Assembly (NCBI GenBank): GCA_048621055.1
Contig: JBMCXO010000001.1
Location: 1 to 55,299, forward strand
DNA from: Candidatus Natronoplasma sp.
GTDB taxonomy: Archaea > Thermoplasmatota > Thermoplasmata > Halarchaeoplasmatales > Halarchaeoplasmataceae
Reading direction: 5' to 3'
DNA length: 55,299 nucleotides
Shown here in pieces: positions 7,225 to 36,151 of the stretch. Positions within the stretch are counted from its first letter, which is position 1. The number at the start of each line of letters is the position of its first letter. The notes under the pieces are model-generated. The model had not been told where the DNA came from. It did not search any database and worked only from the letters and a program-made list of their open reading frames with translations. Both the position numbers and the translations under genes were made by a program.

Positions 7225-7295
7225 ACGACCACCGTTTATTTATTAAAATACGACAGGGCTGTGTTATAAAGATTGTGGTGATATCTCACTGGACT

Positions 7296-13922: not shown

Positions 13923-13932
13923 GTTAAAAGAA

Positions 13933-15864: not shown

Positions 15865-15999
15865 TTTTTCTTGATTTGTTTCCTTTGGTTTTCATGTACT
15901 AATTTCATCATTAAGATTTTCTCATTACGTATCCGTCAACACTCGTTTACTATCACATTAACGAAAATTACCCATCATAAACATAAAATTAAAGGGTTA

Positions 16000-16659: not shown

Positions 16660-16872
16660 AATTTCACACTCAACCCAATTTCTGAAATATTTTCAGAGAA
16701 CCTATGAAGTTCAATATTATAAAACCTTTTTCAGCGTTCTTTCCTAAAACTGCACTCCTATTTAGTTGTTTCCATCCAATCAATTTTTTCCCAGTAAACT
16801 ACATGAAGATAGTGTCTACATCTCAATTTTCCAAAGATAGCCGATGGCGAACATTAGTTGATGATCTAAATA

Positions 16873-19429: not shown

Positions 19430-19643
19430 GTACCTATTTATGTAATTTTTGTCTTTTTCACATATTTTTATAACATTATTAATACACCATAATCTTTTCC
19501 TCTATTGACTATAAGTAATTACCACAGATGACTTAAAATATGGGGTGATTCCTTAATCACACTTTACCCAAAGAGTCTCGAATTCCGACAGTAGTGAGAG
19601 GTTTCCAAAATACTAATAAACCCCTTCTCTTTACTCCGATTTG

Positions 19644-21764
19644 ATGGCATCAAAAAAAGATGAACTCGATGGGCTTTTTGATCCAGATTCTATCGCAGTT
19701 ATCGGTGCCTCCAGAAAAGAAGGAAAGATAGGATACACACTTTTTTCAAACATAATAAAATCTGATTATAAGGGAGAGGTATACCCTATAAATCCAAAGG
19801 GTGGAGAGATTTTCGGAGAAAAGATATACGAATCCATCGAGGATGTGCCCGGGAGCGTAGATCTTGCGGTAGTCGTTGTGCCTGCCAAGATAGTAAAAGA
19901 TGCTATACATGAATGTGGAGAAAAAGGGGTAAAACATGCGATAGTCATCTCCTCGGGCTTTTCAGAAATAGGAAATGTGGAAGAGGAAGAGGAGATGGTT
20001 GAAGAGGCAAAAAAATATGGCATGAGAGTTTTAGGTCCTAATGTTTTTGGCATTTACTCTTCACGGTCAGACCTGAACGCAACTTTCGGTCCTTCAGAGA
20101 TAGAAAAGGGAAGCATCGCTTTACTGTCCCAGAGCGGAGCTTTAGGTATCGCTATGATAGGAAAGACCGCCCAGCAGTATTTAGGTCTCTCTGCTATAGT
20201 GAGCATCGGTAACAAGGCTGATATCGATGATATAGACCTTGTAGACTATTTCAGCGAAGATGAAGAAACAGATGTCATAATGATTTATATGGAGGGGCTG
20301 GAAAACGGAAGGGAGTTCATGGAAAAAGTCAGAGAACTCCCGGAAGATAAAACGGTAGTCGTGATCAAATCAGGCCGTTCGGATAAAGGTGCTACTGCAG
20401 TTGCATCTCATACTGGCTCACTTGCTGGAAGTGACCGTATATTTTCCTCCGCATTCGAACAATGTGGTGTTCACAGAGCGGAGGATTTGAGGGAAGCTTT
20501 CAATTGGTCTAGAGTCCTTTCAACGTCTCCACTCCCAAAAAAAGATAATACTGTCGTGGTCACAAACGGTGGCGGCATAGGAGTCTTAAGTGCCGATGCG
20601 GCGGAAAAATACGATGTGAAATTGCTGGATGACCAGACACATTTAAAAGAAACTTTTGAGGATGCTATACCTTCATTTGGTTCTACCAAAAATCCTGTAG
20701 ATATAACTGGTCAGGCTGGAAAAGAGGAATACGAGAGTTCTTTGAGGAAGGCTTTCAAAAGCGATATGACCGGTGCTGTTGTGGGGCTTTACTGCGAAAC
20801 AGGGACCGCCGATCCGTGGAAAGTAGCCGAGGCGATAAAAGAGGTATATGACGACCATGGGGCTGAAAAGGCTTCGGTGTACACCTTTACCGGTGGCAAG
20901 AAAGTCCAGGAATGTGTCCAATGGTTAAGAAAACATAAGATACCGGCTTTCACAGACACTTACGAATGTATATCCGCTTTGGGTGCACTTTTCAAGAAAA
21001 AACGCTATCTTGAGAGGGAAAAAGAAAGGCAGGAAGAGATAGAGTTGGATATACCTCTCGATAAGATTAGAAAAAGAGTGAGAAAGATAAGAAATAAGGG
21101 TAGATTAACGCTGTTAGAACAAGAAGCACGTGAGATATTGGATCTTGCAGATGTTCCAATGGTAGAGGGAGAAGTAGTGAATTCATTAGATAGAGCGGTA
21201 GAGGTTTCAGAAGATATAGGATACCCAGTAGTATTGAAAGTTGTTTCAGAAGATATAATACATAAATCCGATGCTGGCGGTATCGCTCTCGATCTGGAGA
21301 ATGAAGAGGAAGTTGTAGATGCCTATCAAGCGATATATTCGAATTGCCGCAAGAATTATCCCGATGCTCACATAAGCGGTATTTCCGTAGCAAAGATGCT
21401 CAAAGGTGGAGAAGAGACCATAGTAGGTGGTTCGAGAGACGGTTCTTTCGGACCTTTAATAATGTTCGGTTTAGGTGGCGTTTATGTAGAAGTTCTAGAA
21501 GACGTAGAGTTCCGTGTCGCTCCCATAACCAAAAAAGAGGCTAGAAGGATGATGGGGCAGATAGACTCTTTCCCAGTATTGGTCGGAGCAAGGGGGCAAC
21601 CGAGAAAAGATTTAAACGCATTGGCAGATGTTATATATAGGATATCCTATTTGATGAATGAAATAGAGGAGATCTCGGAGATGGACCTCAATCCTATCAA
21701 AGCATTCGATCAAGGAGAAGGATGTAAAGTTGTAGACGTGGCTATAAATCTCGAAAGTAGGTGA
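19644..21764 (+). CDS. acd: ADP-forming acetyl-CoA synthetase, fused alpha-beta
   Basis: About 706 aa. LFDPDSIAVIGAS, ASHTGSLAGS, and a C-terminal ATP-grasp (GYPVVLKVVSEDIIHKSDAGG). Confidence 0.92.
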   Translation: MASKKDELDGLFDPDSIAVIGASRKEGKIGYTLFSNIIKSDYKGEVYPINPKGGEIFGEKIYESIEDVPGSVDLAVVVVPAKIVKDAIHECGEKGVKHAIVISSGFSEIGNVEEEEEMVEEAKKYGMRVLGPNVFGIYSSRSDLNATFGPSEIEKGSIALLSQSGALGIAMIGKTAQQYLGLSAIVSIGNKADIDDIDLVDYFSEDEETDVIMIYMEGLENGREFMEKVRELPEDKTVVVIKSGRSDKGATAVASHTGSLAGSDRIFSSAFEQCGVHRAEDLREAFNWSRVLSTSPLPKKDNTVVVTNGGGIGVLSADAAEKYDVKLLDDQTHLKETFEDAIPSFGSTKNPVDITGQAGKEEYESSLRKAFKSDMTGAVVGLYCETGTADPWKVAEAIKEVYDDHGAEKASVYTFTGGKKVQECVQWLRKHKIPAFTDTYECISALGALFKKKRYLEREKERQEEIELDIPLDKIRKRVRKIRNKGRLTLLEQEAREILDLADVPMVEGEVVNSLDRAVEVSEDIGYPVVLKVVSEDIIHKSDAGGIALDLENEEEVVDAYQAIYSNCRKNYPDAHISGISVAKMLKGGEETIVGGSRDGSFGPLIMFGLGGVYVEVLEDVEFRVAPITKKEARRMMGQIDSFPVLVGARGQPRKDLNALADVIYRISYLMNEIEEISEMDLNPIKAFDQGEGCKVVDVAINLESR

Positions 21765-21770
21765 TATAAA

Positions 21771-22799
21771 ATGAAAAATCTCATAATATCCTCGACTGAA
21801 GAGGATGCTGGAAAAACGACTATCGGTCTAGGATTAGCACTTGGAGATGATAGACCTTTAAATTACTTTAAACCCTTCGGTGATAGGCCTATCTATAAAA
21901 AAAAGAGGCTCATAGACTATGATGCTAAACTGTTCAAGAACGTCCTTTCTCTTGATACAGAATATGAGAAATTTTGTATAGGCTTCGATCACTCCAAAAT
22001 CAAGTACGCTTTCGACGAAGATACGATTCGTGACAAGATCAAAGAAAGGACAGATGAACTCTCAGAGGGAAAAGAAGGTTTGATAATAGAAACTGGAAAA
22101 CACTGGGGATTCGGATCTTCGATCACTCTTGATCCGGTATCCCTCTCCAAGATGATCGAAACTGAAGTAATACTGGTGACTTCAGACAGCGGAACTGAGA
22201 TACTAGACAAACTAACGACCGCATATAACTACTTCGAAAAAAACGGTGTGGATCTGCGGGGCGTCGTGCTGAACAAGGTCGAATCTTTGGAGGAGGCTGA
22301 AGATTTTGTTGTGGACGATATAGAAGATTTAGGTTTGGATGTATTGGGGATAATACCCAAGATCAGCAGTCTTGACCTAACCAGGATGAGCTTCATAAAC
22401 GATATGCTTTTCGGTAAGGTCGTAGCGGGAGAGGAAGGCCTTAACAATATAGTAGAAAATGTATATGTAGGTGCTTTGAGCGCCGATGAATTAGTGCGTA
22501 TTCCCGCTTTTCAGGAAGATGGTAAGTTGATCGTCACTGGAGGAGATAGAACCGATGTCATCTTAGCTTCGTTAGAAGATGGAACATCAGGACTTGTTCT
22601 GACCAATGATATAATACCGCCCAGTAATATAATCTCAAAAGCTGATAGAGCAAACATACCCTTGGTCTCAGTACCTATCGATACTTATGAAGCCGCGAAA
22701 AGAATCGAGAGGATGGATACCATAACAACTATAGAAGACGATTACAAGATAGAGAACATCAAAGAAGAAGTAACACCTAGACTGGATATAAAAATCTGA
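21771..22799 (+). CDS. Pta N-terminal-like protein (P-loop DTBS-like domain plus DRTGG domain), with no PTA catalytic domain
   Basis: 342 aa with EEDAGKTTIGLGLA and LIVTGGDRTDVILASL. Confidence 0.75.
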   Translation: MKNLIISSTEEDAGKTTIGLGLALGDDRPLNYFKPFGDRPIYKKKRLIDYDAKLFKNVLSLDTEYEKFCIGFDHSKIKYAFDEDTIRDKIKERTDELSEGKEGLIIETGKHWGFGSSITLDPVSLSKMIETEVILVTSDSGTEILDKLTTAYNYFEKNGVDLRGVVLNKVESLEEAEDFVVDDIEDLGLDVLGIIPKISSLDLTRMSFINDMLFGKVVAGEEGLNNIVENVYVGALSADELVRIPAFQEDGKLIVTGGDRTDVILASLEDGTSGLVLTNDIIPPSNIISKADRANIPLVSVPIDTYEAAKRIERMDTITTIEDDYKIENIKEEVTPRLDIKI

Positions 22800-22859
22800 A
22801 AAGACCCTTCGAATTAGTAACCGTCTCTCTCTGATGCGGAAAAAAAGGATTGATGATAG

Positions 22860-24698
22860 ATGGTATATGATGTAGATTATGTGGAAGCTGAAAAAGCTAT
22901 CAAAGAGATCGGTAGAGGTGAAAGAGTTTTTGTTGGATCGGGGGCCGCTGAACCTCAGTACCTCGTCAAAAATTTGACCGATCTAGCCAATCAGTTTTAC
23001 GATACAGAAATATTTCACATACAGACTTTGGGCGTCGCACCCTACACTGAGGATAAATTTGAAGACCGTTTCAGGCACAATGCTTTTTTCGTAGACGACA
23101 ACACGAGGGACGCTGTAGCCGAGGGGAGAGCCGATTATACTCCTATATTTATGAAAGATATCCCCAAACTGTTCAGGAGTAAGAGGGTTCCTTTGGATGC
23201 GGCTTTGGTTCAATTGTCTCCCCCAGACGAACACGGGTGGATGAGTCTTGGTATCGCTGTAGATATAATAAAATCAGCTGTGAAAAACTCAAAGATCGTC
23301 ATAGGACAAGTGAACCCCCATATGCCTAGAGTTCACGGAGATTCCTTCATACATGTAGATGATGTAGATTATTTGGTACATCATGAGGAAGAACTCTTGG
23401 AATTCGATCCTATATTTCCCAGCGAGAAAGCAGAAGAAATAGCTGATAATGTAAGCCCCTTGATCGAGGACGGAGCTACAATACAGGTCGGTTATGGAGA
23501 GATACCTAATGCTATTTTATCTCATCTTGAAGAAGAGGAAAATCTTGGTATTCATACGGAGATGTTATCAGAAGACCTTGCTGAGTTAATCAAAGACGGG
23601 ATCATAACCAATAAAGAAAAGAGCATACATCCAGGAAAGAGCATAGCTTCATTTTTGATGGGCACTAAAGATCTATATGATTTCGTAGATGACAATCCCT
23701 CCATAGAACTTCATCCCTCTGATTATACCAACGATCCTTTTAACATAGCAAAAAATCACAAGATGACCGCGATAAACACCGCCTTACAGGTAGACCTCAC
23801 GGGCCAGGTCTGTGCCGACTCGTTAGGTTACAGCTTCTACAGCGGTATCGGTGGTCACGCTGATTTTATGAGAGGAGCAGGATATGCGGAGGATGGAAAA
23901 TCGATCATCGCCCTTTCATCGACCGCTCAAGATGGAGAGGTTTCAAGGATCGTTCCATCTCTAGATGAAGGCGCTGGGGTAGTTACTACGAGAGGAGATG
24001 TAGAGTATGTAGTGACTGAATACGGTACTGCTTATCTGAAAGGGAAAAATATTCGAAACCGAGCCATGGAACTCATAAATATAGCCCATCCAAAGTTTAG
24101 AGAAGAACTTCTCAAAAAAGCGAAGGAACATAACCTTGTTTATAAAGATCAGATGCTTGTAGTTGGTGAAGGAGGGAGATACCCAGATGAATACAAAGAT
24201 TACGTTGAGATCGAGGGCAAAGAATTCGTGTTCCGGCCGATGAAACCTACTGACGATGAACTTCTAAAGGACTTATTCTACTCGCTTTCTGATGAAAGCC
24301 GATATAAACGTTTCATGAGCGCTCGAAAGGACATGCCTCACGAGAGAAGGCAGGAGTTCGTCCAGTTGAATTATAATAAGGAGATGGCTATCGTAGTAAT
24401 AGATACCGAAATCGATGGGCCTCACAGGATGGTAGGAGTCGGAGATTATCGGATCAAAGAAGGACAATATGTTGCTGAAGTCTCCTTCATGATAAGAGAC
24501 GAGTACCAAGGTCAGGGAATAGGAACTAGACTCCTTGAATATCTGACCATGATCGCTCAGGATCAGGGTCTTTACGGATTTACAGCCGAAGTACTCGCGG
24601 ACAATAAGAAGATGTTGAGAGTCTTCGAAAAGATGGGTTATGATATAGAAAAAAGAAGAGAATTCGGAGAGATAATCTTAAAGATGAGGTTCAAATGA
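22860..24698 (+). CDS. acetyl-CoA hydrolase/transferase-family domain fused to a Pat-type GNAT acetyltransferase domain
   Basis: 612 aa. CoA-transferase-like N-terminal ~440 aa (VFVGSGAAEPQ...). The C-terminal FRPMKPTDDELLKDLFYSLSDESRYKRF...QGQGIGTRLLEYL matches the GNAT domain of bacterial Pat. Confidence 0.8.
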   Translation: MVYDVDYVEAEKAIKEIGRGERVFVGSGAAEPQYLVKNLTDLANQFYDTEIFHIQTLGVAPYTEDKFEDRFRHNAFFVDDNTRDAVAEGRADYTPIFMKDIPKLFRSKRVPLDAALVQLSPPDEHGWMSLGIAVDIIKSAVKNSKIVIGQVNPHMPRVHGDSFIHVDDVDYLVHHEEELLEFDPIFPSEKAEEIADNVSPLIEDGATIQVGYGEIPNAILSHLEEEENLGIHTEMLSEDLAELIKDGIITNKEKSIHPGKSIASFLMGTKDLYDFVDDNPSIELHPSDYTNDPFNIAKNHKMTAINTALQVDLTGQVCADSLGYSFYSGIGGHADFMRGAGYAEDGKSIIALSSTAQDGEVSRIVPSLDEGAGVVTTRGDVEYVVTEYGTAYLKGKNIRNRAMELINIAHPKFREELLKKAKEHNLVYKDQMLVVGEGGRYPDEYKDYVEIEGKEFVFRPMKPTDDELLKDLFYSLSDESRYKRFMSARKDMPHERRQEFVQLNYNKEMAIVVIDTEIDGPHRMVGVGDYRIKEGQYVAEVSFMIRDEYQGQGIGTRLLEYLTMIAQDQGLYGFTAEVLADNKKMLRVFEKMGYDIEKRREFGEIILKMRFK

Positions 24699-24818
24699 GG
24701 TGAGAAGATAATAAGCGATGAGGAGTGTATAGAAGAAAAAATCGAAAAAGATTGGGAGATCGATTTTAACGGGATCAAAGAGATAATCGAAGAAGCAGGA
24801 GATGATGGAAGACATCAG

Positions 24819-25460
24819 TTGATCGAAAGCGAAATGCGTAAAGTTCTCCAAATCGCGGGCATCTCGATGGCTAAAGGTAAGATAGTTAGAAATCTAGAAG
24901 ACTGTTTAGATGCGGCAGAAAGTATCGGTTATCCCGTAGTACTCAAAGTGGTCTCGGAGGACATAGTCCACAAGATGGACGTCGGCGGTATTGCTGTAGG
25001 TCTTGAGACCAAAAAAGAAGTCGAAGATGCCTATCAGGCAATACATTCAAGGGTCAAAAATAGAAAACCCGATGCGAACATAAGAGGTATTTCCGTTGCG
25101 GAGATGGTCGAAGGCGGTGTTGAAGTCGTGATAGGTGGGATGATGGATCCCACTTTCGGTCCAGTAGTGATGTTCGGGTTTGGAGGGATCTACGTGGAAA
25201 TATTCGAAGACGTAGAATTCAGAGTCGCTCCCATATCCATCGAAGAAGCACATCGGATGATGGCAGAGATAAATTCTTTTCCCCTGCTGACCGGCGCGCG
25301 AGGGCAAGGTTGTAAAGACTTGAATGCCTTGGCGGAAATGACCTCTCGAGTCGGGGATCTGATATACCACGTCGATGAAATAAACGATATAGACTTGAAT
25401 CCGGTAGCGTCCCTGGCTGAAGGTGCTAAAGCTTTGGACGTTGCGATCAGTCTAGGGTGA
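24819..25460 (+). CDS. ACD beta-type ATP-grasp domain protein; coding sequence probably begins upstream of the TTG
   Basis: GYPVVLKVVSEDIVHKMDVGGIAVGL is collinear with the C-terminal part of ORF 19644-21764. Homology continues through 24699-24818, which is in frame with the upstream gene and follows directly after its TGA. Confidence 0.8.
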   Translation: MIESEMRKVLQIAGISMAKGKIVRNLEDCLDAAESIGYPVVLKVVSEDIVHKMDVGGIAVGLETKKEVEDAYQAIHSRVKNRKPDANIRGISVAEMVEGGVEVVIGGMMDPTFGPVVMFGFGGIYVEIFEDVEFRVAPISIEEAHRMMAEINSFPLLTGARGQGCKDLNALAEMTSRVGDLIYHVDEINDIDLNPVASLAEGAKALDVAISLG

Positions 25461-25581: not shown

Positions 25582-25896
25582 GTGTCTGTTAAAGAAATCA
25601 AGAAGATAAAGAAGGCTGAAAAACAAGGCCTTAAAAAAGTGGAAAAGGCCAAAAAGAAAGGCGAAAAGATGGTACAAGAGGCTAAAGAAAAAGCACATCA
25701 GGAGAAAGAAGATGCTCTGTTTTCGCTGAGGAAAGAGTTAAAAGAAAAAAAGAAAGAAGTTAAGAAAGAAGCCGAAAACAAGTCTGAAAAAATAAGGGAG
25801 AGAGGAGAAAAAGAAGCAGAAAAAATAAGAAGTTCGACTAAAGAAAATATATCTAGGGCCGTAGATCACGTCCTGAAAGAGGTAATGGAGGTATGA
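25582..25896 (+). CDS. atpH: A-type ATP synthase subunit H (Lys/Glu-rich coiled coil)
   Basis: 104 aa, GTG start, immediately precedes atpI. Composition and position are typical of AtpH. Confidence 0.6.
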   Translation: MSVKEIKKIKKAEKQGLKKVEKAKKKGEKMVQEAKEKAHQEKEDALFSLRKELKEKKKEVKKEAENKSEKIRERGEKEAEKIRSSTKENISRAVDHVLKEVMEV

Positions 25897-25900
25897 ACAT

Positions 25901-28045
25901 TTGCTGTTTCCAAAGATGATGAAAGACCTCACGATCCTTGTCCATAAAAATTATACCCATGAGGTCGTGGATTCTCTTCAAGACGAGAGTGTTGTCGAAA
26001 TAGATTCAGTAGATAGAGACGAGGATGTAAAAGAGCTCATAGAGGAAAAAAATATACCTGAAATCATCACAGATTTCACGGATTATGAGATGAGATTGTC
26101 CTCTATTATAGATATATTTGAAAGGATAGAAGAAGAAGGAGAAACAAGCATAAAAGAATTTTTGAATCCACCTGAACCCGAAAAGATTGAAAGGGAAAAA
26201 AAACCATTAGATGATCTATTCGATGAAGTAGATAATCTCCTAGAAGAAAATGGTAAAGAGATCAAGGAATTGAATTCCGAACTCACAGAGATAAAAGATA
26301 AGATAAAAGATCTGAAAGAAAAAGAAAAAGCCCTCAATATCATCATAGATATCGATATAGAATTGAGTTCGCTTGGTGAATCAACTTTTTCCGTTCTACG
26401 ACTAGGAAAAACAAAAAACCCCACTAAGTTGAAAAGTGCCTTAGAGGAATTAGAAAGTGCTTTTTTCTCTAAGACCGGAAAGACAGAGGAGGAATATCTC
26501 GTATTGACTGGGGCTTATTTAGGGGAGAAAGAGGGATACGAAAGGGCTCTCAAAGAAGGAGATTTTAGGCCACTCAAGTTAGAGGAGCTTAAAGGGGATC
26601 CAAAAGAGGCTCTCGCAAGGGTAAAAAAGGGTCTTAAAAAGTTGAAGGAACGACGCGACTCGATTGTCGATGATCTGAGAGAATATAAAGAGGATTGGGA
26701 GAAAAAATACCAGGTGTTAAGAGAAGAGTTGAATATATATAGGGATAAAAAAGAGATTGTCCAGAATTTCGGCAGTACGGATACGACTAGCGTGATAAAA
26801 GCCTGGGCTGAAGAAGACGATATTGAAAAGGTAGAAGATGTTATCTCAGATTGCGCTAAGGGTCACGCCGAAATCGTCGATGAAGAACCTGTAGATCCAG
26901 ATGAAGTCCCCATCTCTCTAGAAAATCCAAAACCTATCAAGCCGTTTGAGCTTTTAACGAAGATGTTCGCACCTCCGAGATATGACGAGGTCGATCCAAC
27001 TATTATTGTGGGTCCTGCATTCGTTCTTTTCTTCGGTTTGATGCTTGGAGATTTTATTTACGGTCTCATACTAGCTGTTGGAGCCATCGTCATGATAAAA
27101 GGGCCTGGGAAGGTAGAAGAGGGGATAAAGAACTTCGGCTGGATTCTATTTGCAACGGGGCTCTCCACCATATTTTTTGGTCTTATCCAAGGGGGTTATA
27201 TGGGACCAGGTAGAGATGACTATCATAACCTTATAGGTAGATTCGGTATCGAGACCCCTGCTTTACTGGAAACATTAGAAGGAGATGGACCCCTCATACT
27301 GCTAATCATCTCTTTGGTTATTGGAATAACCTACATCAATATTGGGCTCGTATTGCAATTGGTCCAACATATAAAACGAAAGAATTACAAAAGAATCATA
27401 CTTGAAAATACATCATGGTGGTTGTTGCAGCCCGCCGCATTTATACTGATAGCTCCTATGATGGTTGAAGATTTTACCTTTACATCTACTGTAAACTACG
27501 CAGCCTATGGAATGGGGGCTGTCGGCCTAATCCTTTTAGCTCTTAGAGCTAAAGGACTGTCTTTCTTCGAGTTGACCGGCTTTTTAGGCGACTTTTTGTC
27601 TTTTTCAAGAATATTGGCCCTGGGATTGGCGACTGCGGGAATAGGGCTTACCGTGAATGTGATCACTGATCTGGTCGCTGGAGCAGATGTAGGCATGTTG
27701 ATAGTCTGGCCCCTATTGGCGATAGGCACAATTGTTGCTTTATATGGCCATATCAAGAAAAAAAGTGATAAGATGACAGGGGTCGGTGGAGTTTTGATAA
27801 TACTTGGCGCGATGGGTTTTGCAGATCCTTCATATCCATTCTTTGTATTAGCTCTTTTAGTATTCTTTGCTGGCCATATTATAAACCTCGCGCTTCAAGG
27901 TTTAGGTTCCTTTGTCCATTCGCTCAGGCTTCAATATGTTGAGTTCTTTGGATATTTCTTCGAAGGTGGAGGAAAGGAATTCGAACCTTTTAAATTTGAA
28001 AGAAAACACACAAAATTAAAAACTAAGGAGGAGATGACAAAATGA
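25901..28045 (+). CDS. atpI: A-type ATP synthase subunit I (stator a-subunit)
   Basis: 714 aa. Soluble coiled-coil N-terminal half plus a polytopic C-terminal half, in the operon position expected for atpI. Confidence 0.9.
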   Translation: MLFPKMMKDLTILVHKNYTHEVVDSLQDESVVEIDSVDRDEDVKELIEEKNIPEIITDFTDYEMRLSSIIDIFERIEEEGETSIKEFLNPPEPEKIEREKKPLDDLFDEVDNLLEENGKEIKELNSELTEIKDKIKDLKEKEKALNIIIDIDIELSSLGESTFSVLRLGKTKNPTKLKSALEELESAFFSKTGKTEEEYLVLTGAYLGEKEGYERALKEGDFRPLKLEELKGDPKEALARVKKGLKKLKERRDSIVDDLREYKEDWEKKYQVLREELNIYRDKKEIVQNFGSTDTTSVIKAWAEEDDIEKVEDVISDCAKGHAEIVDEEPVDPDEVPISLENPKPIKPFELLTKMFAPPRYDEVDPTIIVGPAFVLFFGLMLGDFIYGLILAVGAIVMIKGPGKVEEGIKNFGWILFATGLSTIFFGLIQGGYMGPGRDDYHNLIGRFGIETPALLETLEGDGPLILLIISLVIGITYINIGLVLQLVQHIKRKNYKRIILENTSWWLLQPAAFILIAPMMVEDFTFTSTVNYAAYGMGAVGLILLALRAKGLSFFELTGFLGDFLSFSRILALGLATAGIGLTVNVITDLVAGADVGMLIVWPLLAIGTIVALYGHIKKKSDKMTGVGGVLIILGAMGFADPSYPFFVLALLVFFAGHIINLALQGLGSFVHSLRLQYVEFFGYFFEGGGKEFEPFKFERKHTKLKTKEEMTK

Positions 28046-29430
28046 ATATGAAATCGAAGTTTGGAAAAAGATTATTGATAGCTTTACTAATCGTAGCACT
28101 GGTGTTCAGTCTAGGATTTACTTCCTCGATAGGATCGGTGGAAGGACAGAGTGAAGATGCTACTGGAATCCTTGTGAATGGCCAAGACCTAGGGAAGGAA
28201 ACGACGCTCAGTTTGGAACCAGATAAATCAGTAAGAGCTGTGCTCAGTGTTGACCTAAGTCAAGTTGATAACAACATAACGAATATCAATTGGACTTTCC
28301 CTGAAGAAGAGGGGTTCACTAAGAATGTTCTAGCCGAACACGAGAACGACGGATATTATCAAATAGAAGTCGCTTTTAGAGAATATGGCGAATATGACTT
28401 TAATGTGTTAGTCGATATAGAAGATGAAGACAATCTCACAGACGATCTTACAATTATAGTAGAAGAAGATCAGAGAGGTATGTTCTTGGCCACCGTAGGA
28501 GCCGGACTCGCAGTAGGTATTGCCGGCATGGGCGCCGGGATAGGTGTCGGTATAGCCGGTGCGGCCGGTGCAGGTACTATCGCTGAAAAACCAGACAAGT
28601 TCGGCTTATCACTGGTATTTCAGGCGCTACCACAGACTCAGGCTATCTATGGTCTTCTCGTGGCCATCTTGATTTTACTTTTCACCGGTGTGATCGGAGG
28701 GGGCGGTGCTATTCCGATACCTGTCGGTATCATGGCTGTAGGGATAGGATTGGCGGTCGGTCTTGCTGGATTATCTGCTATAGGTCAGGGCATCTCTTCA
28801 GCTAGTGGGATAGCTACTGTGGCAGAGGACAGCGAAATGTTCGGTAGAGGTATGGTCTTTTCAGTGCTTCCTGAAACCCAAGCTATCTATGGATTACTCT
28901 TATCGATCTTGCTTATGATATTCAGCGGTCTGTTAGGAGGAGGCGATGCCATGGCTGGAATAGATGTTCCTGTTGGTCTTGTCGGCATCGGAGCTGGACT
29001 CTCTGTAGGTATTGCTGGACTTTCTGGTATTGGACAGGGTATTGCTTCTGCCAGTGGTATCGCTACAGTCGCGGAAGATGAGACCATGTTCGGTAGAAGT
29101 ATGGTCTTTTCAGTTCTTCCTGAAACCCAGGCAATTTATGGCCTTCTGATAGGCATTCTCCTGATCGTATTCAGCGGTATGATGGGAGATGAGCCAACGA
29201 TGACGATGGGAATGGGGATCGCCGCGGTAGGAGCAGGTCTTTCTATCGGTATTGCGGGTATCTCAGGTATAGGCCAAGGTATCACCTCAGGTTCTGCTAT
29301 AGCTGCCGTGGCTAACAGAGAAGAAACATTTGGAAAAGGCATGATATTCAGCGTGATGTCAGAAACTTTCGCAATTTTTGGCTTACTAGTGGCGATACTC
29401 ATCATAGTCTCGCTTGGATTCATGGGGTGA
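28042..29430 (+). CDS. atpK: A-type ATP synthase proteolipid subunit K: four fused hairpins preceded by a signal peptide and an extracytoplasmic domain
   Basis: 462 aa. ATGA overlap with atpI, and GGAGG at 28027-28031. Residues 147-462 are 4 x ~80-aa c-subunit repeats (LPQTQ, LPETQ, LPETQ, MSETF). Confidence 0.9.
   Translation: MNMKSKFGKRLLIALLIVALVFSLGFTSSIGSVEGQSEDATGILVNGQDLGKETTLSLEPDKSVRAVLSVDLSQVDNNITNINWTFPEEEGFTKNVLAEHENDGYYQIEVAFREYGEYDFNVLVDIEDEDNLTDDLTIIVEEDQRGMFLATVGAGLAVGIAGMGAGIGVGIAGAAGAGTIAEKPDKFGLSLVFQALPQTQAIYGLLVAILILLFTGVIGGGGAIPIPVGIMAVGIGLAVGLAGLSAIGQGISSASGIATVAEDSEMFGRGMVFSVLPETQAIYGLLLSILLMIFSGLLGGGDAMAGIDVPVGLVGIGAGLSVGIAGLSGIGQGIASASGIATVAEDETMFGRSMVFSVLPETQAIYGLLIGILLIVFSGMMGDEPTMTMGMGIAAVGAGLSIGIAGISGIGQGITSGSAIAAVANREETFGKGMIFSVMSETFAIFGLLVAILIIVSLGFMG
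28480..29430 (+). repeat. intragenic tandem repeat: four proteolipid hairpin units (~240 nt each)
   Basis: Equivalent residues Q198/E278/E361/E441 are spaced 80, 83 and 80 aa apart. Units 2 and 3 are the most similar. Confidence 0.85.
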
Positions 29431-30017
29431 GAGAGATTTCAGTAGAAAAGATCGTAGAGAAGATAAAAGCAGACGTTCAAAACAAGATTGACACCATAAT
29501 GGAAAAAGAGAAAGAAAAAGCCGAAGAGATCAGAGAAGAAATAGAACGGGAAAAAGAAAGGAGATTGAACGAAATAGAGAAGGAAAAAGAAAGAGAGATA
29601 AAAACGTTGAAGAACAGGATCATATCCCAAGCGGAATTGGAATCTAGAAAGAAAAGGTTGAATATCAGGGAAGAGATGATCGAGAGAGTTTTGGATAACA
29701 GCAGAAAAAAATTGAGAGAGATGGATCCCGAAGATTATGATGAATATCTCGAAGAGTCGATAGAAAAATCTAGAGAGCTGCTAGATGGCGAAGTAGAGAT
29801 CCACTGTCCAAAAGAATCAGAAGATCAAGTGAAAGATATCGCAAAAAAGATAGATTCTTCTCTGAAAGTTATCGGTGATCTAAACTCAATCGGCGGTGTA
29901 AAGGCAGTTTCAGATAAAGGAGCGACCATAGACTTGACTTTTGAAGCAAATATTGAACGAAAGAAAAAGCAGCTCAGAAAAGAAATATCTGATATATTAT
30001 TTCCGGAGGAAGAGTAA
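29427..30017 (+). CDS. atpE: A-type ATP synthase subunit E
   Basis: 196 aa. Charged N-terminal helix plus a globular C-terminus, in the operon position expected for atpE. Confidence 0.8.
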   Translation: MREISVEKIVEKIKADVQNKIDTIMEKEKEKAEEIREEIEREKERRLNEIEKEKEREIKTLKNRIISQAELESRKKRLNIREEMIERVLDNSRKKLREMDPEDYDEYLEESIEKSRELLDGEVEIHCPKESEDQVKDIAKKIDSSLKVIGDLNSIGGVKAVSDKGATIDLTFEANIERKKKQLRKEISDILFPEEE

Positions 30018-31151
30018 GTGTTAGAAGATCTCATAGATAGTATAGGGATGACTAACTTCGTTTTCTTGATCATCGGTTTAGCTCTACTGCTGGTGATAAT
30101 CCTCTTCATGAGTTATTACCGAGTGGTTATAAGCATAGCCAATTTTACCTACCCCAATGCGGTCTTCCGATCAAGTGGAAATCCTTATTTGAAAGAAAAA
30201 AAAATATCCGATCTGGTGGAAGGAGGTAATTTGAATGAAGTCTATTCAGAACTAGAGGAGGATGGATATGAAATTTCTAAAGAAGCGAGAGAAGATATCG
30301 ATAAAGTCGAAAAAGAACTTGAGAATAAAAATATTGAGCTGATGAAAAAGGCTCACAGGACTTCTCCAGATGAGACAAAAAGGTTCACTAAAGCTTGGCT
30401 TTCGAGATATGATGTGAAGATGGCAAAACGCGCTATCAAAGCGATAAAGGAAGATAGATTAGAAGAAGTAGAGGACCGACTTTATCCGGTTAAAGAAATA
30501 AATGAAAAAGTTATAGATGACCTCAGCTCCGCTAGAAATCTGCAGGAAGCCCTTTCTATATTAAGAGGCACGGAACTCGAAGAGGTTCTGGAAAAGAAGG
30601 AATGGGAAGAAAAGCCCTTCGAACTCGATGTTACCTTAGACAAATACGCCTTCAATAAGTTGAAGGAGGGTATATTCAAAGTAGAGTCTGAGCAAAGAGC
30701 TCCTGTCAGGTATTTTTTCGGAAGATATGTCGATCTTCTAAATATCAAAATAATATTGAGAGGGATCAGAGAAGAAATTCAAAGCGAAAGGCTGAAGGAT
30801 TGCATTTTACCTAAAGGGAGAGAATTACCGGAATGGAAGTTAGAAGAGATGGCTGAATCTACCAGCATCGACGAAGCTCTAGTACAATTAGAAGGGACAT
30901 CATATGAAGATATCAGGAATAAGATGCAGTCAGATGAGAAGTTTGATTTTGAACATTACCTAGATAAAAAATTACTCAAAATGGTTACAGAACTCAACAA
31001 TCAACATATCCTTACTGTAGGACCTACTTTGAAATATCTTGTGGGAAAGGAGTTAGAACTGAGAAACATGAGAGCTCTGATTCGTGGGATAAAAGAAGAT
31101 GTTGATCCGATAAGAGTCAAAGAGTTGATGATCCTGGAGGATAATATATGA
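30018..31151 (+). CDS. atpC: A-type ATP synthase subunit C (d-like), with a possible N-terminal hydrophobic extension
   Basis: 377 aa. ANFTYPNAVFRS matches the usual YxYxNARxR start of AtpC. GTG at 30018 has GGAGG 8 nt upstream. An alternative ATG lies at 30108. Confidence 0.85.
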   Translation: MLEDLIDSIGMTNFVFLIIGLALLLVIILFMSYYRVVISIANFTYPNAVFRSSGNPYLKEKKISDLVEGGNLNEVYSELEEDGYEISKEAREDIDKVEKELENKNIELMKKAHRTSPDETKRFTKAWLSRYDVKMAKRAIKAIKEDRLEEVEDRLYPVKEINEKVIDDLSSARNLQEALSILRGTELEEVLEKKEWEEKPFELDVTLDKYAFNKLKEGIFKVESEQRAPVRYFFGRYVDLLNIKIILRGIREEIQSERLKDCILPKGRELPEWKLEEMAESTSIDEALVQLEGTSYEDIRNKMQSDEKFDFEHYLDKKLLKMVTELNNQHILTVGPTLKYLVGKELELRNMRALIRGIKEDVDPIRVKELMILEDNI

Positions 31152-31495
31152 AAAAGAAGGTAGTAGTGGTCGGGAAAAAGGATATGACATTGGGTTTTTC
31201 CCTTGCTGGCATAGACGAAACTTTTACTCCAACTGACGAATATGAAAGCAAAAAAAGAATAAATAAGCTGTTAGAGTCGCCGGATGTAGGCGTCATATTA
31301 TTATCAGAGGGTATAGCAGAAGAGATAAGAGAGCATATTCAGGGAAAAGAGAGAGAAAGAAAGGGAACGATTTATCCTATCATTGTAGAGATACCCGATA
31401 AAGAAGGTCCTTTAGAAGATAAGGAGGATCCTCTTAAAGGCAAGATAAAAAGAGCTGTAGGTATAGATATCACTTCACAGGAGGGAAAAGAATGA
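31148..31495 (+). CDS. atpF: A-type ATP synthase subunit F
   Basis: 115 aa with VVVVGKKDMTLGFSLAGI...VGVILLSE. Confidence 0.85.
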   Translation: MKKKVVVVGKKDMTLGFSLAGIDETFTPTDEYESKKRINKLLESPDVGVILLSEGIAEEIREHIQGKERERKGTIYPIIVEIPDKEGPLEDKEDPLKGKIKRAVGIDITSQEGKE

Positions 31496-31550
31496 TGTAT
31501 AAATTTCATAAAGATTATTATTTTGAAATCCGTTCAGGAGGAAAGAAAAT

Positions 31551-33461
31551 ATGGTAAACGAAGCCGAGGAAAGTATAAGCAAGATCAAAGAACCTGATGA
31601 AGATGAAGGAGTTGGACGAATAATTCATGTTGCTGGTCCAGTCGTAGAAGCCGAAGGTCTTAGAGGAGTCGAGATGTACGAAGTGGTTGAAGTCGGCGAG
31701 GAAGGCCTGATCGGAGAAGTAATCGAACTTGACGAAGATGTTGCTACGATACAAGTTTATGAAGAGACCGGAGGTGTGAAACCGGGAGAACCGGTAGAAA
31801 GGACTGGCGAACCTCTTTCGCTAGAGTTGGGACCGGGTCTCATCGAACAAATTTATGACGGTATACAAAGGCCTCTAGAAGGAATAGTTGAAGAGACCGG
31901 CGATTTCATAAAGAGAGGTATCGAAGTCTCTCCTCTAGATGAAGAGAGGGAATGGGAATTTGAACCGAAAATTGAAGAAGGTGAAGAAGTCGAACATGGA
32001 GATATCCTCGGTATTGTAGAGGAGACCAAGACGGTCGAACACAGGGTCATGGTCCCTCCTGATAAAAGCGGGGAGGTAAAAGAGATAGTTTCTGAAGGAA
32101 AATACACTATAAATGAAACTATAGCGATTCTAGAGAACGAAGAAGGTGAAGAAGAGATAAGTATGAAACAGCGATGGCCCGTTAGAGTAGGTAGACCGAT
32201 CAAAGATAAAAAACAGCCAGGAGAGCTGTTGGTCACGGGTCAGAGAGTGTTGGATACTTTCTTCCCTCTAGCTAAAGGGGGAACAGCGGCTATTCCAGGG
32301 GGGTTCGGGACTGGCAAAACGGTCATCCAGCATCAATTGGCCAAATGGAGTGATGCAGACATAGTCGTCTACGTCGGCTGTGGAGAGAGAGGTAACGAGA
32401 TGACAGAAGTTCTCAGAGATTTCCCTGAATTAGAAGATCCATGGAGTGGAGAACCTCTGATGAAGAGGACCGTTCTGATCGCAAATACCAGTAACATGCC
32501 CGTCGCTGCAAGAGAAGCTTCCGTCTTTTCTGGTATAACTATAGCGGAATACTACAGAGACATGGGTTATAACGTGGCTTTGATGGCCGATTCAACTTCT
32601 CGATGGGCAGAGGCCCTGAGAGAGATATCCGGAAGGTTAGAAGAGATGCCTGGTGAGGAAGGTTTTCCCGCGTATCTAGCCTCTGAGCTCGCTTCATTCT
32701 ATGAAAGAGCTGGTATCTGCGAGCTTTATGGTGATAGAGAGGGTTCTGTTTCCGTGATCGGAGCTGTAAGCCCTTCTGGAGGAGACTTTTCTGAACCGGT
32801 CACCCAGAACACTTTGAGGATAGCACAGGTCTTCTGGGCTTTAGATACCGAACTGAAGAACAGACGTCACTTTCCGGCTATAGATTGGTTGACTTCATAT
32901 TCACTTTATCTCGACCAGGTAGGTAAATGGTGGGATGAGAACGTAAACGAAAATTGGCAGGATCTTAGAAGAGAGACCATGCGTTTGTTAGAAAAAGAAT
33001 CTGAACTCGAAGAGATCGTCCAGCTAGTCGGACCAGATGCTCTACCCACCTCAGATCAATTCGCACTTCAGGCCGCTAGACTTGTCAGAGAAGATTTCCT
33101 TCAACAGAACGCTTTCCACGATGTGGATACTTTCTGTTCTCCAGAGAAGCAGTTCAGAATGCTCCAAATAATAATGGAATTCTACGAAACCGGACAGAGA
33201 GCTCTCGAAGAAGGCGTCTCCGTAGATAGTTTATCAGAAATGGATGTTATAGAAGATATAAGCAGAATGTCGAACATACCCTCGGATGAATGGGAAGAGA
33301 AATCTGGCCAAGTTGAGATGAAGATGAACGAAGAATTCAAAGAACTTGAAGAATCACTAGAACTCTCTTCTCCTCTCGAAGGAGAGACTGAAGAGGAGTT
33401 AGATGTTGAAGAAGAAGAGAGCAAGATGAATGATGAAGACATTACACCGGAGGAGGGATAG
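31551..33461 (+). CDS. atpA: A-type ATP synthase catalytic subunit A
   Basis: 636 aa. GGFGTGKTV Walker A plus the non-homologous region typical of A subunits. About 40-aa acidic C-terminal extension. Confidence 0.96.
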
Positions 33462-33463
33462 AG

Positions 33464-34852
33464 ATGGTCGACGATATGTCAAAAAGGACGGAATATCAGA
33501 ATGTTACTGAAGTTGCTGGACCTTTGATGGTAGTTGAAGGTATCAGCGATGTCGCTTATGATGAGATAGCTAAAGTCAAATTGCCGAGTGGTGAGGAACG
33601 GTTAGGGCAGGTACTAGAGGCTGGAACCGATCGTGCAGTCCTGCAGGTTTTTGCAGGAACTAGAGGATTGGATACTGATGAAACTAGCGTACAATTCACC
33701 GGCGAGGTCATGAAGTTCGGCGTCTCTAGAGAACTTCTCGGCAGGGTTTTCAACGGAATTGGAGAGCCTATCGATGGAAGTCCAGATATCATACCTGATG
33801 AAAGAAGGAATATAAATGGAGATCCTATAAACCCATCTGCTAGAGAATATCCTAGAGAATTCATCCAGACCGGTATTTCAACCATAGACGGTATGTTGAC
33901 TTTGGTCAGAGGACAAAAATTACCTATATTCAGCGCTTCAGGTTTACCGCATAACAGCGTTGCGGCTCAGATCGCCAGACAGTCCGAAGTATTGGGTGAA
34001 GAGGAAGAGTTCGCCGTGGTTTTCTGTGCGATGGGTATCACCGCGGAGGAAGCGAACTTTTTCAGAAAGGACTTCGAGAGAACGGGAGCACTGGAAAGGT
34101 CGGTCCTGTTCCTGAACCTCGCCGATGATCCTGCTATCGAAAGGATAGTGATACCGAGGATGGCGCTTACTGCAGCTGAGTACCTCGCCTTCGAAGAAGA
34201 TATGCAGGTGTTGGTCATTCTTACGGACATGACGAACTACTGCGAGGCCCTGAGGGAGATAGCTGCGGCGAGGGAAGAAGTACCTGGAAGAAGGGGTTAT
34301 CCAGGTTACATGTACACTGATCTCGCGAACATCTATGAGAGAGCGGGCAGGATATTGAACAGAGAGGGGTCCATAACCATGATACCTATACTCACCATGC
34401 CCGACGACGACATAACCCATCCTATCCCTGATCTTACAGGATACATCACCGAGGGACAGCTCGTGTTCTCTAGAGAATTACATAGAAAAGGGATCAGGCC
34501 TCCTATCACGCCTGGTGAGAGCCTTTCTAGACTCATGGAAGAAGGTATAGGCGGAGAAAGAACGAGAGAAGATCACTCCGGCGTGAGCAATCAACTGTAT
34601 GCTGCCTACGCAGAAGGTCTTGATCTTCGTGATCTTGTAGCTGTTGTGGGCGAAGAAGCACTCAGTGAACGAGATAGACTTTACCTTGAATTTGCAGAAG
34701 AGTTCGAAGAGCGATTCATAGATCAGGGAGTCGAAGAAGACAGGAGTATAGATGAAACGCTCGATATGGCCTGGGACTTGCTCACAATCATACCAAAAAA
34801 GGAATTGAAGAGGATAGATCAGAAATACATAGACGAGTACTATCCAGAGTGA
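33464..34852 (+). CDS. atpB: A-type ATP synthase subunit B
   Basis: 462 aa with [17 protein letters not shown] and related motifs. Confidence 0.96.
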
Positions 34853-34858
34853 AAAACT

Positions 34859-36151
34859 TCACTCCATCCTTTTAAGCGGTTTAGAGAGATGCCTCCTAGC
34901 TGAAACAGGCACCTCGTACCACTTTTCATTTAACTCTCTATCTACTTTCTCTCGTATCGCTTGATCTTCGTCTGCTTTTGTTCTACACCTCTTGCATCTA
35001 TATCCTGCGTCTGTCCCCATCGATGACATCCTCTTCCCACATTCGGGACATTCTGGATTTCTGATTTTTACTGTCTTTTCCTCCAACTCTAGAATTTTCA
35101 TTTTTTCTATATTTAGAGTCCTAGGCTCTTTTCTCACTCCTCCCCACAATTGAACCCCGTCCCCCACTATCAGCTTTTTTATGATTTCTCTGAACCCTTT
35201 CGTGGGTTCATAAGCCGCTGCGGTTATCTGGTCCGTCTCATCTTTTACATCGAAAAGTACATGTCCTCCTTCTATCGACCTTGGTTCTGAACATACCTCT
35301 CCTTCGATCTTTACTGAGTTCCAAGGCTCCATATCTTTGATTAGTGCCTGCTGTATATGATCGTCTGTGGCTTGATTGGTGAGAAATGTGACCCATCTTT
35401 CCGGTTCTTCTTCACCTATTTTATCTAGAGCTTTCTGTAATTCCTGTGAATCCTCCCCTCTTACACCATAGAGAACTGGGCAGGGAGAATTAGGAGCTAT
35501 AGCCTGTTTGTTTTCTTCATGATCATAGCAATTAAAAGCACCATCGATTATATCATCGAGACGTCTGATATCTTCTTCATCTAACTCTCTACTAGTGCCC
35601 CACTTTTCTTCTCTACGATATGTTAGTAGTTCATAGGTCATATCTTTTGGTGTCCAGGCTAGAGCTGCTGAAGCACCGATCAAACCTCTTTTCTCTCCAT
35701 AACCTTTGTACTCGAAACCATTTTGATCCAAATCATCTAAAACATCCTCCAACTCAACGACATCTTTAACAGCCTTCTCATACAGGTCTCGGGGAGGTCT
35801 TCTTTCGGCTAAGATCAATCCTGGATTAGTGTTCGAACTTCGAAAATGAGCTAATCCTTCTACCACTTTTTTAATCCTATCAAAATCTTTTTCTCTTTTC
35901 TCATGTGTACCTTTAAAGGTCCAGAGATCCCCATCTACATAACCTATCCTCTTTTCTTTTTCACTCCCTTTTCCGAACGTTAGAACAATGGCTCCGTTTC
36001 CTCTCGTCTTCCAGGGTACGTTAGGGTTTAGTCTAACCAATTTGGGATAATCCAACATCTGATAGTCTGTGAATTCTTTAATCAACTCAGTAGCTAAAAA
36101 AGTCGTACACATACCTTCTCTAGAATCCGTATCATCAACAGCTATGTACAT
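34859..36151 (-). CDS. tiaS: tRNA(Ile2) 2-agmatinylcytidine synthetase
   Basis: MYIAVDDTDSREGMCTTFLA N-terminus and a C-terminal zinc ribbon (CPECGKRM...CKRC). Confidence 0.9.
   Translation of the reverse strand: MYIAVDDTDSREGMCTTFLATELIKEFTDYQMLDYPKLVRLNPNVPWKTRGNGAIVLTFGKGSEKEKRIGYVDGDLWTFKGTHEKREKDFDRIKKVVEGLAHFRSSNTNPGLILAERRPPRDLYEKAVKDVVELEDVLDDLDQNGFEYKGYGEKRGLIGASAALAWTPKDMTYELLTYRREEKWGTSRELDEEDIRRLDDIIDGAFNCYDHEENKQAIAPNSPCPVLYGVRGEDSQELQKALDKIGEEEPERWVTFLTNQATDDHIQQALIKDMEPWNSVKIEGEVCSEPRSIEGGHVLFDVKDETDQITAAAYEPTKGFREIIKKLIVGDGVQLWGGVRKEPRTLNIEKMKILELEEKTVKIRNPECPECGKRMSSMGTDAGYRCKRCRTKADEDQAIREKVDRELNEKWYEVPVSARRHLSKPLKRME

Follow-up and report, generated by a model that had tools for sequence, protein, structure and literature searches.

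To our knowledge, the c-rings of rotary ATPases are regarded as rings of minimal helical hairpins embedded in lipid, and every known decoration on their non-cytoplasmic side (Ac45, PRR, Voa1) is a separate eukaryotic subunit. Archaeal c subunits have been multiplied to different degrees: there are two hairpins in Methanothermobacter and Pyrococcus, three in Methanocaldococcus jannaschii and thirteen in Methanopyrus kandleri. The known archaeal set comprises 1, 2, 3 or 13 hairpins (PMC9171764). In NtpK, the rotor subunit of the Enterococcus hirae Na+-ATPase, the Na+ ligands are the carbonyl of Leu61, Thr64, Gln65, Gln110 and Glu139 (PMC2359735). In eukaryotic V-ATPases, Ac45, PRR and the first transmembrane (TM) helix of c'' sit at the centre of the c-ring and fill its pore, and the luminal domain of Ac45, which is glycosylated and beta-rich, caps the ring and rotates with it (PMC7414150). 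Here we describe atpK, a c-subunit gene in a 55,299-nucleotide stretch of contig JBMCXO010000001.1 from Candidatus Natronoplasma sp. (the whole stretch is called the window below), whose product combines four fused proteolipid hairpins with an N-terminal exported domain. It is highly probable that the gene is translated as one precursor carrying three Na+-type sites and an exported PKD-like domain. The overall explanation that we favour, in which this domain stays on the working rotor, is given a probability of roughly 60%. The parts of the gene are as follows.

28042..29430, forward strand: atpK, encoding a 462-residue precursor made up of a signal peptide, a PKD-like ectodomain and four proteolipid hairpins
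28025..28033, forward strand: Shine-Dalgarno site AAGGAGGAG, 8 nt upstream of the atpK ATG
28042..28146, forward strand: predicted Sec-type signal peptide, residues 1-35 (n-region MNMKSKFGKR, h-region LLIALLIVALVFSLGF, c-region TSSIGSVEG/Q, the slash marking the predicted cut)
28147..28470, forward strand: acidic PKD-like beta-sandwich ectodomain, residues 36-143, from AlphaFold2, phmmer and the Pfam matches of orthologues
28480..28713, forward strand: hairpin 1, residues 147-224, with a dead site, from self-alignment and a homologue survey; Val169 (28546-28548) replaces the helix-1 Gln and Gln198 (CAG, 28633-28635) replaces the Glu
28714..28959, forward strand: hairpin 2, residues 225-306, predicted Na+ site with Gln249 (28786-28788) and Glu278 (28873-28875)
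28960..29196, forward strand: hairpin 3, residues 307-385, predicted active site with Gln332 (29035-29037) and Glu361 (29122-29124)
29197..29427, forward strand: hairpin 4, residues 386-462, predicted active site with Gln412 (29275-29277) and Glu441 (29362-29364)

The open reading frame (ORF) at 28042-29430 is uninterrupted over 462 codons and is the third gene of an atp operon. Subunit K/c was defined by the Pfam family PF00137 and by the NCBIfam models PRK14893/PRK06271. The product contains four PF00137 (ATP-synt_C) stretches (209.7 bits against a cutoff of 24) and matches two NCBIfam equivalogs for V-type ATP synthase subunit K, NF011483 (364.2 bits, cutoff 188) and NF004913 (344.1 bits, cutoff 211). 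These matches identify the ORF as AtpK, the rotor proteolipid (c subunit) of the A1AO ATP synthase in a haloalkaliphilic member of the Thermoplasmatota. The nearest species-representative genome is a Thermoplasmatota metagenome-assembled genome (MAG) from Great Salt Lake (97% identity), and further close relatives come from metagenomes of Kulunda soda-lake sediment. An earlier note on the window, made by reading the sequence, had proposed an AtpK with four fused hairpins, one of them without a working site; Pfam, NCBIfam and the alignment of the hairpins with one another all bear this out, and every coordinate that the note gave proved correct when checked on the sequence.

When the four hairpins are aligned with each other, hairpins 2 and 3 read IGQGI/LPETQ in helices 1 and 2 and hairpin 4 reads IGQGI/MSETF, while hairpin 1 reads IGVGI/LPQTQ. 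Glu278, Glu361 and Glu441 are invariant in 20 homologues. A Foldseek search with the full-length model retrieved c/K subunits only, c'' chains among them, and the best match to a solved structure was E. hirae NtpK (2bl2, E 9.7e-18, 35% identity, TM-score, i.e. template modelling score, 0.85 to the target). Alignment to 2bl2 places the carbonyl of NtpK Leu61 at window Leu196, Thr64 at Thr199, Gln65 at Gln200, Gln110 at Gln249 and Glu139 at Glu278, and the ligand set of this first site recurs for sites 3 and 4 in the self-alignment. Hairpins 2-4 are therefore predicted to carry the NtpK-type Na+ ligand set, giving three sites in four hairpins, and the suggestion in the earlier note of a Na+-type signature is strengthened by the match of the full set of ligands to NtpK.

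Each site would take a Gln (helix 1) and a Glu (helix 2) from its own hairpin, and helix 2 of the hairpin before it would supply the Leu carbonyl, Thr and Gln. The non-site residues Val34 and Gly63 of NtpK align with Val169 and Gln198, so that hairpin 1 is dead just as the first half of NtpK is, lacking its own site and donating three ligands to the next. By keeping Leu196, Thr199 and Gln200 it would complete the site of hairpin 2. Hairpin 4 (SETF) is without the donor Gln, since it would abut the dead hairpin 1 in the closed ring. The logic is that of NtpK, in which the carboxylate-less first hairpin (Gly63, where the window protein has Gln198) donates the Leu carbonyl, Thr and Gln and the last hairpin also lacks the donor Gln (ETY in NtpK, ETF in the window). 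NtpK, however, has two hairpins, one site and neither signal peptide nor ectodomain, whereas the window protein adds two active hairpins and an exported PKD domain.

The dead first hairpin is no peculiarity of this gene; it is the rule in a much wider set of multi-hairpin AtpK proteins, including those of cultured Methanomicrobiales. Among about 150 homologues, the first hairpin has Val or Ile with QTQY and the middle hairpins have Gln with ETQY; in nearly all, the last hairpin has Gln with ETFF, EISF, ETYF or ETFL (ETY at the equivalent place in NtpK). The donor Thr-Gln is invariant in hairpin 1, and it is relaxed (TF, IS, TY) only in the last hairpin, again in nearly all of the set. Relaxation of the donor only beside the dead hairpin 1 would be the signature expected of Na+ sites lying between hairpins in a head-to-tail ring. 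The six-hairpin AtpK proteins of Methanomicrobiales (Methanofollis fontis P0081, Methanolinea mesophila P0119, Methanocalculus taiwanensis P0086) have an identical site pattern, but they start 1-5 residues before helix 1 and have no signal peptide and no PKD domain. As five- and six-hairpin AtpK of cultured Methanomicrobiales without the N-terminal extension show the same pattern, the dead first hairpin must be old and widespread.

A four-hairpin subgroup resembling Haladaptatiplasma (P0100, P0104, P0106, P0110, P0111, P0114, P0116, L012, L014 and L016) has E-I-S-F rather than E-T-F-F in the last hairpin and Ile rather than Val in hairpin 1. Donor positions that face the dead site drift freely in this subgroup, which fits the model of sites between hairpins.

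The N-terminal part of AtpK is of a quite different kind. Residues 36-143 are acidic, with 29 Asp/Glu against 5 Lys/Arg, and AlphaFold2, given an alignment of 36 orthologous domains, folds them as an eight-strand beta-sandwich with a mean pLDDT (predicted local distance difference test) of 87.9. Of those 36 aligned domains, 21 match PF18911/PF00801. Orthologous domains in sister subclades are canonical PKD domains, with E values down to 1.4e-18, and a phmmer search links the N-terminal part of the window protein to those of PKD-annotated orthologues (P0023, 7.7e-14; P0019, 4.2e-13), the domains matched in this way belonging to six-hairpin relatives. The only invariant residue of the domain, Trp84, is the Trp of the PKD motif WDFGDG. 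In a Foldseek search with the domain, PKD domains were among the best TM-scores (0.55-0.64; 2yrl 0.59, AAVR 0.62-0.64). A hidden Markov model of the domain alignment matched 99,575 proteins, among which giant multi-PKD repeat proteins ranked highest; the search supports kinship with PKD domains but, being swamped by multi-PKD surface proteins, is unusable for counting the family.

The ectodomain shares with described PKD domains (PF00801/PF18911, as in the collagenase ColG and in AAVR/KIAA0319L) the beta-sandwich of about 100 residues, here a predicted one, and the motif Trp. It departs from them in a motif decayed to NINWTFPEEE (WTFPEE), in an insertion of about 12 residues after the motif and in a Pfam score below threshold. 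Taken together, the evidence from phmmer, the Pfam matches of orthologues, the predicted fold and the TM-scores points to a degenerate PKD domain homologous to bona fide ones, and upholds the earlier reading of the N-terminus as a signal peptide followed by a PKD/Ig-like domain. N-x-S/T sequons are enriched 3.7-fold in the N-terminal domains of the family (264 observed against 72 expected by shuffling, a count that is not independent for each sequence because the sequences are related), and the window domain has three (N78, N83 and N131). The enrichment fits an N-glycosylated location outside the cell.

Export is predicted from the first 35 residues, which have a Lys/Arg-rich start, a hydrophobic core of 16 residues and a V-E-G/Q site. 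Positions -1 (A/G) and -3 (V/T/S/A) are small in each of the 20 close homologues and Q/E comes next, the equivalent site being mostly Q-P-V-E-A/Q or E, and distant subclades show similar sites such as A-S-A/QEE and V-K-A/QG. The 72 unique N-terminal extensions have an n-region with 2-7 Lys/Arg and a core with a mean Kyte-Doolittle value of about 3, with the exception of three with truncated starts. Cleavage sites were read from the -1/-3 pattern in alignments; a heuristic that placed sites inside the hydrophobic core was discarded. The pattern is that expected of a signal peptidase I substrate, and the signal peptide is probably cut after Gly35.

The same segment could instead stay uncleaved as a ninth TM helix in the pore of the ring, in the manner of c'' TM1 or the Voa1/Ac45 helix, so that the PKD cap would be tethered at both ends. 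A core of 16 residues is long for a signal peptide, the low-confidence linker of 16 residues (26-41) could reach back to the membrane, and the Foldseek search with the full model retrieves c'' chains as well. There is also the precedent of extra helices that fill c-ring pores (PMC7414150). Nevertheless, the small residues at -1/-3 followed by Q/E are found in 20/20 close homologues, and A-x-A-like sites occur in distant subclades. As a PKD domain has its N- and C-termini at opposite ends, the anchor would need to double back by about 40 Å. We consider such an anchor improbable.

That the exported domain and the hairpins are parts of one translated unit is indicated by several kinds of evidence. 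All of the 20 close four-hairpin homologues (59-88% identity) have the three parts collinear in a single frame, uninterrupted by a stop or frameshift, and at least 25 Thermoplasmata/Thermoplasmatota species genomes keep them in one frame, no complete gene being split. An N-terminal extension of 90-300 residues, signal-peptide-like at its start, is found in 61 of the 120 best database homologues. A GGAGG/GAGGT motif lies 6-10 nt before the ATG of the long ORF in 23/23 related loci, distant six- and twelve-hairpin forms included. By the Nei-Gojobori method on six orthologues, dN/dS is 0.18-0.26 for the N-terminal domain (where dS is unsaturated) and 0.01-0.05 for the hairpins; pN of the N-terminal domain is 0.11-0.32 in the unsaturated comparisons. 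These ratios indicate that the N-terminal domain is under purifying selection, about tenfold more relaxed than that on the hairpins.

The other candidate start is the internal ATG at 28480 (Met147). AtpK might be made from there, with the upstream 438 nt encoding a separate secreted protein or a non-functional read-through. Met147 stands exactly where AtpK proteins without the N-terminal extension begin, and purine-rich GAGAGG precedes it. The GAGAGGT at this place, however, abuts the ATG with zero spacing and so leaves no usable Shine-Dalgarno distance, against the conserved 6-10 nt upstream of the long ORF. Met147 occurs only in the subclade of the window and is Thr, Ala or Lys in the others. 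There is no stop between the two parts in any of about 80 homologues, and an upstream ORF without a stop could not release a separate protein. Two products are thus very improbable indeed. The fusion is judged to be real on the in-frame homologues, the conserved Shine-Dalgarno site at the upstream ATG, the unconserved Met147 and the purifying selection on the N-terminal domain. The checks proposed in the earlier note all speak for the fusion: relatives keep the upstream 438 nt in frame and free of stops, the start signals favour 28042 over 28480 and the N-terminal region is under purifying selection.

The NCBI record for the window protein (MFW5945612.1) calls it a 'hypothetical protein' of 460 aa starting at 28048 (Met3). 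Met1 is the start that is conserved in relatives without a second Met (L005 MKIGS, L006 MKRKA), and its Shine-Dalgarno spacing is also better than that of Met3.

A chimeric assembly was considered and ruled out, as the same architecture is found in many independent assemblies from Great Salt Lake, the Kulunda soda lakes and other sites; since it recurs in dozens of them it is not due to chance. Nor is the fusion a singleton: its family numbers at least 80 proteins, with 4, 6 or 12 hairpins, and takes in at least 25 Thermoplasmatota species genomes from soda-lake and hypersaline sediments. Four hairpins are found in 28 sequences, six in 52 and twelve in three, and one complete member has five. 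The three twelve-hairpin proteins, all from Thermoplasmata MAGs, have one signal peptide and one ectodomain ahead of the 12 hairpins and arose differently.

L011, 1192-4548: 1118 aa, 12 PF00137 stretches, hairpins 1 and 7 dead (two fused six-hairpin units)
L019, 5986-9339: 1117 aa, 12 PF00137 stretches, hairpins 1, 7 and 10 dead
L026, 4444-8004: 1186 aa, 12 PF00137 stretches, hairpin 1 only dead

These chains may hold a whole rotor ring in one polypeptide, comparable to the 13-hairpin subunit of M. kandleri. The V/A-ATPase of Thermus has a c12 ring (PMC7414150), and 4, 6 and 12 are the divisors expected of a 12-hairpin ring, so that the ring of this family most likely has 12 hairpins. The ring of the window organism would then most likely consist of 12 hairpins from three chains, pass nine Na+ per turn (about 3 Na+/ATP) and bear three ectodomains per rotor. 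The corresponding number would be two ectodomains in six-hairpin species and one in twelve-hairpin species.

The subtypes of the N-terminal domain follow the hairpin clades, and vertical inheritance after one acquisition of the ectodomain is plausible, though no more than that. A single origin of the fusion was tried as a stronger claim and dropped: a neighbour-joining tree of two hairpins with BLOSUM62 gave one ectodomain clade that was not robust to bootstrap. Equally fragile was the placement, in that tree, of the Methanomicrobiales proteins as the nearest group without the N-terminal extension. With Kimura distances, bootstrap for the ectodomain clade was 7/100 on two hairpins.

Two contigs with a Thermoplasmatota-type atpK are filed elsewhere, L008 (JBKHKA010000017.1) under a 'Candidatus Aenigmatarchaeota archaeon' MAG and L013 (PWFW01000126.1) under a 'Halanaerobiaceae bacterium' MAG. 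The AtpK of L008 matches P0028, which NCBI assigns to Candidatus Natronoplasma sp., in length and N-terminal sequence. Both contigs are probably mis-binned.

The position of the ectodomain on the ring can be proposed from known rotors. In solved c/K rings such as that of NtpK (2bl2), the connectors between hairpins and the N-terminus of helix 1 face outward, helix 1 lies on the inner side and the outer helices contact subunit a. The loops within the hairpins of the window protein (AEKPDKFG, AEDSEMFGRG and alike) we take to be the conserved cytoplasmic loops, so that here too the connectors and the N-terminus of helix 1 would face outward. In the full-length AlphaFold2 model the last strand of the ectodomain ends at residue 142 and TM helix 1 begins at 145, which leaves no linker between them in the model.

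We therefore propose, as a working model, that the Sec signal peptide (1-35) exports the N-terminus and is then probably cut after Gly35. This would leave an acidic, probably N-glycosylated PKD beta-sandwich of about 108 residues outside the cell, joined without a linker to the inner-ring helix 1 of hairpin 1. By analogy with solved rings, a helix 1 in the inner ring would place the ectodomain near the axis of rotation, over the outer mouth of the ring and clear of the stator subunit a. There it could act as a rotor-borne cap that aids assembly or stability of the ring and seals the central pore, outside the ion path. We lean towards the ectodomain staying on the working rotor; the specific role in capping or assembly, which is argued from analogy, is tentative.

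The analogy is with Ac45/ATP6AP1 (Voa1 in yeast), PRR and c'' TM1, which are extra elements borne by the rotor on the non-cytoplasmic side of the ring. Ac45, Voa1 and PRR are separate type-I membrane proteins, whereas in the window a covalent fusion joins the domain to the proteolipid's own N-terminus. No match to Ac45/Voa1 was found in a PDB sequence search or with Foldseek on the N-terminal domain, and the likeness is one of analogy only.

The near-absence of a linker bears on another possibility, that the ectodomain is a transient pro-domain or topogenic device which drives Sec-dependent insertion of a glycine-rich, very hydrophobic proteolipid of eight helices with the N-terminus out and is then clipped near a D-x-R-G junction, leaving the working rotor bare. 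The junction D143-x-R145-G146 is nearly invariant in the subclade of the window and G146 is invariant in the whole family. The ectodomain evolves about 10 times faster than the hairpins, and 1-3 domains per ring would be tolerable for a role in biogenesis. The luminal domains of Ac45 and PRR are themselves trimmed by furin (PMC7414150). The junctions elsewhere in the family differ, however (KPALSTGAY, EGKLGAY), so there is no common cleavage motif, and in the model the last strand runs into the TM helix with little access for a protease. A folded domain of about 100 aa, kept at dN/dS of about 0.2 down to some 12-25% identity, exceeds what a signal peptide needs, and the six-hairpin AtpK of Methanomicrobiales inserts without any ectodomain. 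We think it unlikely that the domain is lost in this way.

The fast evolution is also what is often seen in exposed interaction modules. PKD domains in surface proteins of archaea and bacteria commonly make contacts with other proteins or with carbohydrates, and the profile of the N-terminal domain matches tens of thousands of multi-PKD surface proteins. The ectodomain might accordingly be an external handle, either a brake or regulator of rotation that binds a ligand or the S-layer, or a surface receptor carried on an abundant complex. Neither the operon nor its neighbourhood offers an evident partner, though, the sequence points to no specific ligand, and binding to a static structure would stall the rotor. 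We find this reading quite doubtful.

Several observations weigh against the cap that we favour or against steps leading to it. The window domain itself has no Pfam match to PKD above threshold (the best, PF22352, reaches 12.7 bits against a cutoff of 27, E 0.13) and no Pfam family at E<=0.001, and its Foldseek matches are generic Ig-like ones with E 2e-3 or worse. The full-length model is of moderate confidence (pLDDT 67.5). As the Methanomicrobiales build the same multi-hairpin rotor without an ectodomain, such proteolipids in general do not need one in order to be inserted or to work. Five hairpins, as in the complete member P0033, do not divide 12. On a ring of 12 hairpins the number of ectodomains would vary between 1 and 3 from species to species, which argues against a symmetric plug of fixed geometry. 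When four hairpins were used in the Kimura-distance tree, the main group of 61 sequences had a bootstrap of 58/100 and five divergent long-branch sequences were left unplaced. The function of the ectodomain is the weakest step of the proposal; cleavage, retention and glycosylation of the domain and the stoichiometry of the ring are likewise read from sequence.

The surrounding operon has the gene order H-I-K-E-C-F-A-B (25582-34852), which is identical in the related loci L001 and L003-L006. The immediate neighbours of atpK are the following.

25901..28045, forward strand: atpI, stator subunit a/I (PF01496), directly 5' of atpK
29427..30017, forward strand: atpE, directly 3' of atpK

The atpK ATG overlaps the atpI stop (ATGA at 28042-28045), and the start of atpE overlaps the atpK stop. 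The last gene of the operon is atpB, beyond which lies a convergent TiaS-like gene (window 34852-36151; L001 18164-19465). The gene for the central-stalk subunit D, atpD, was not found after atpB in the window or in L001, nor among ten other window ORFs of about 200-250 aa that were scanned, and must therefore lie elsewhere in the genome. In the soda-lake relative L004 (4962-6084), atpC (AC39/d) is called not as one ORF of 377 aa but as two that overlap, of 168 and 209 aa, from either a frameshift or a sequencing error.

AtpA of the window (31551-33461, 636 aa) is free of inteins. In L001, a syntenic relative of 88% identity, AtpA (13507-16773) has 1088 aa and contains an intein together with a LAGLIDADG homing endonuclease; Intein_splicing is seen in the Natronoplasma locus L006 as well (6492-7380). 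Being absent in the window and present in L001 and L006, the AtpA intein is polymorphic among close relatives. Window AtpA also ends in a highly acidic tail of about 50 residues (33300-33461), which makes the protein longer than an archaeal A subunit would be expected to be.

A conserved cluster, present in L001 too, is found directly upstream of the atp operon (window 19641-25460). It encodes proteins of the ADP-forming acetyl-CoA synthetase type (CoA_binding/ATP-grasp_5), a DRTGG-domain protein and an acetyl-CoA hydrolase/transferase fused to a GNAT acetyltransferase (612 aa).

What was known already is that archaeal proteolipids can be multiplied and have fewer sites than hairpins. The AtpK proteins described here resemble such subunits in both respects, and the single-chain ring of M. 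kandleri is close in kind to the twelve-hairpin relatives. The known set given above (PMC9171764) includes no 4-, 6- or 12-hairpin forms with exactly one dead first hairpin per repeat unit, and none of its members bears an extracytoplasmic domain. No description of a fusion between a PKD domain and a proteolipid, or of AtpK with 4, 6 or 12 hairpins, was found in the searchable literature, which leaves most subscription journals out of reach. The exported folded domain fused to a rotor subunit, in versions of 4, 6 and 12 hairpins, is apparently undescribed. In practical terms, genes of this type, labelled 'hypothetical protein', 'PKD domain-containing protein' or 'subunit K' in different genomes, should be called AtpK where they are mislabelled.

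There is a small chance that the ectodomains form an exposed rotating structure with a function of its own on the working rotor, as a brake or clutch acting through an external partner (S-layer, glycocalyx or ligand) or as a cap like Ac45/Voa1 that sets the stoichiometry of the ring. If so, this would be the first folded extracytoplasmic domain built into a c-ring subunit. A fused ectodomain raises the question of the insertion route, Sec or YidC-type, and the further questions of what fills or caps the pore of the ring and whether the need for a rotor cap arose more than once. Within the family, what is probably one ring of 12 hairpins comes in natural versions built from one, two or three chains, and these would have 11, 10 or 9 live Na+ sites. 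This series of chain numbers is well suited to the study of how the ratio of ions to ATP is tuned under extreme constraints of energy and salinity.

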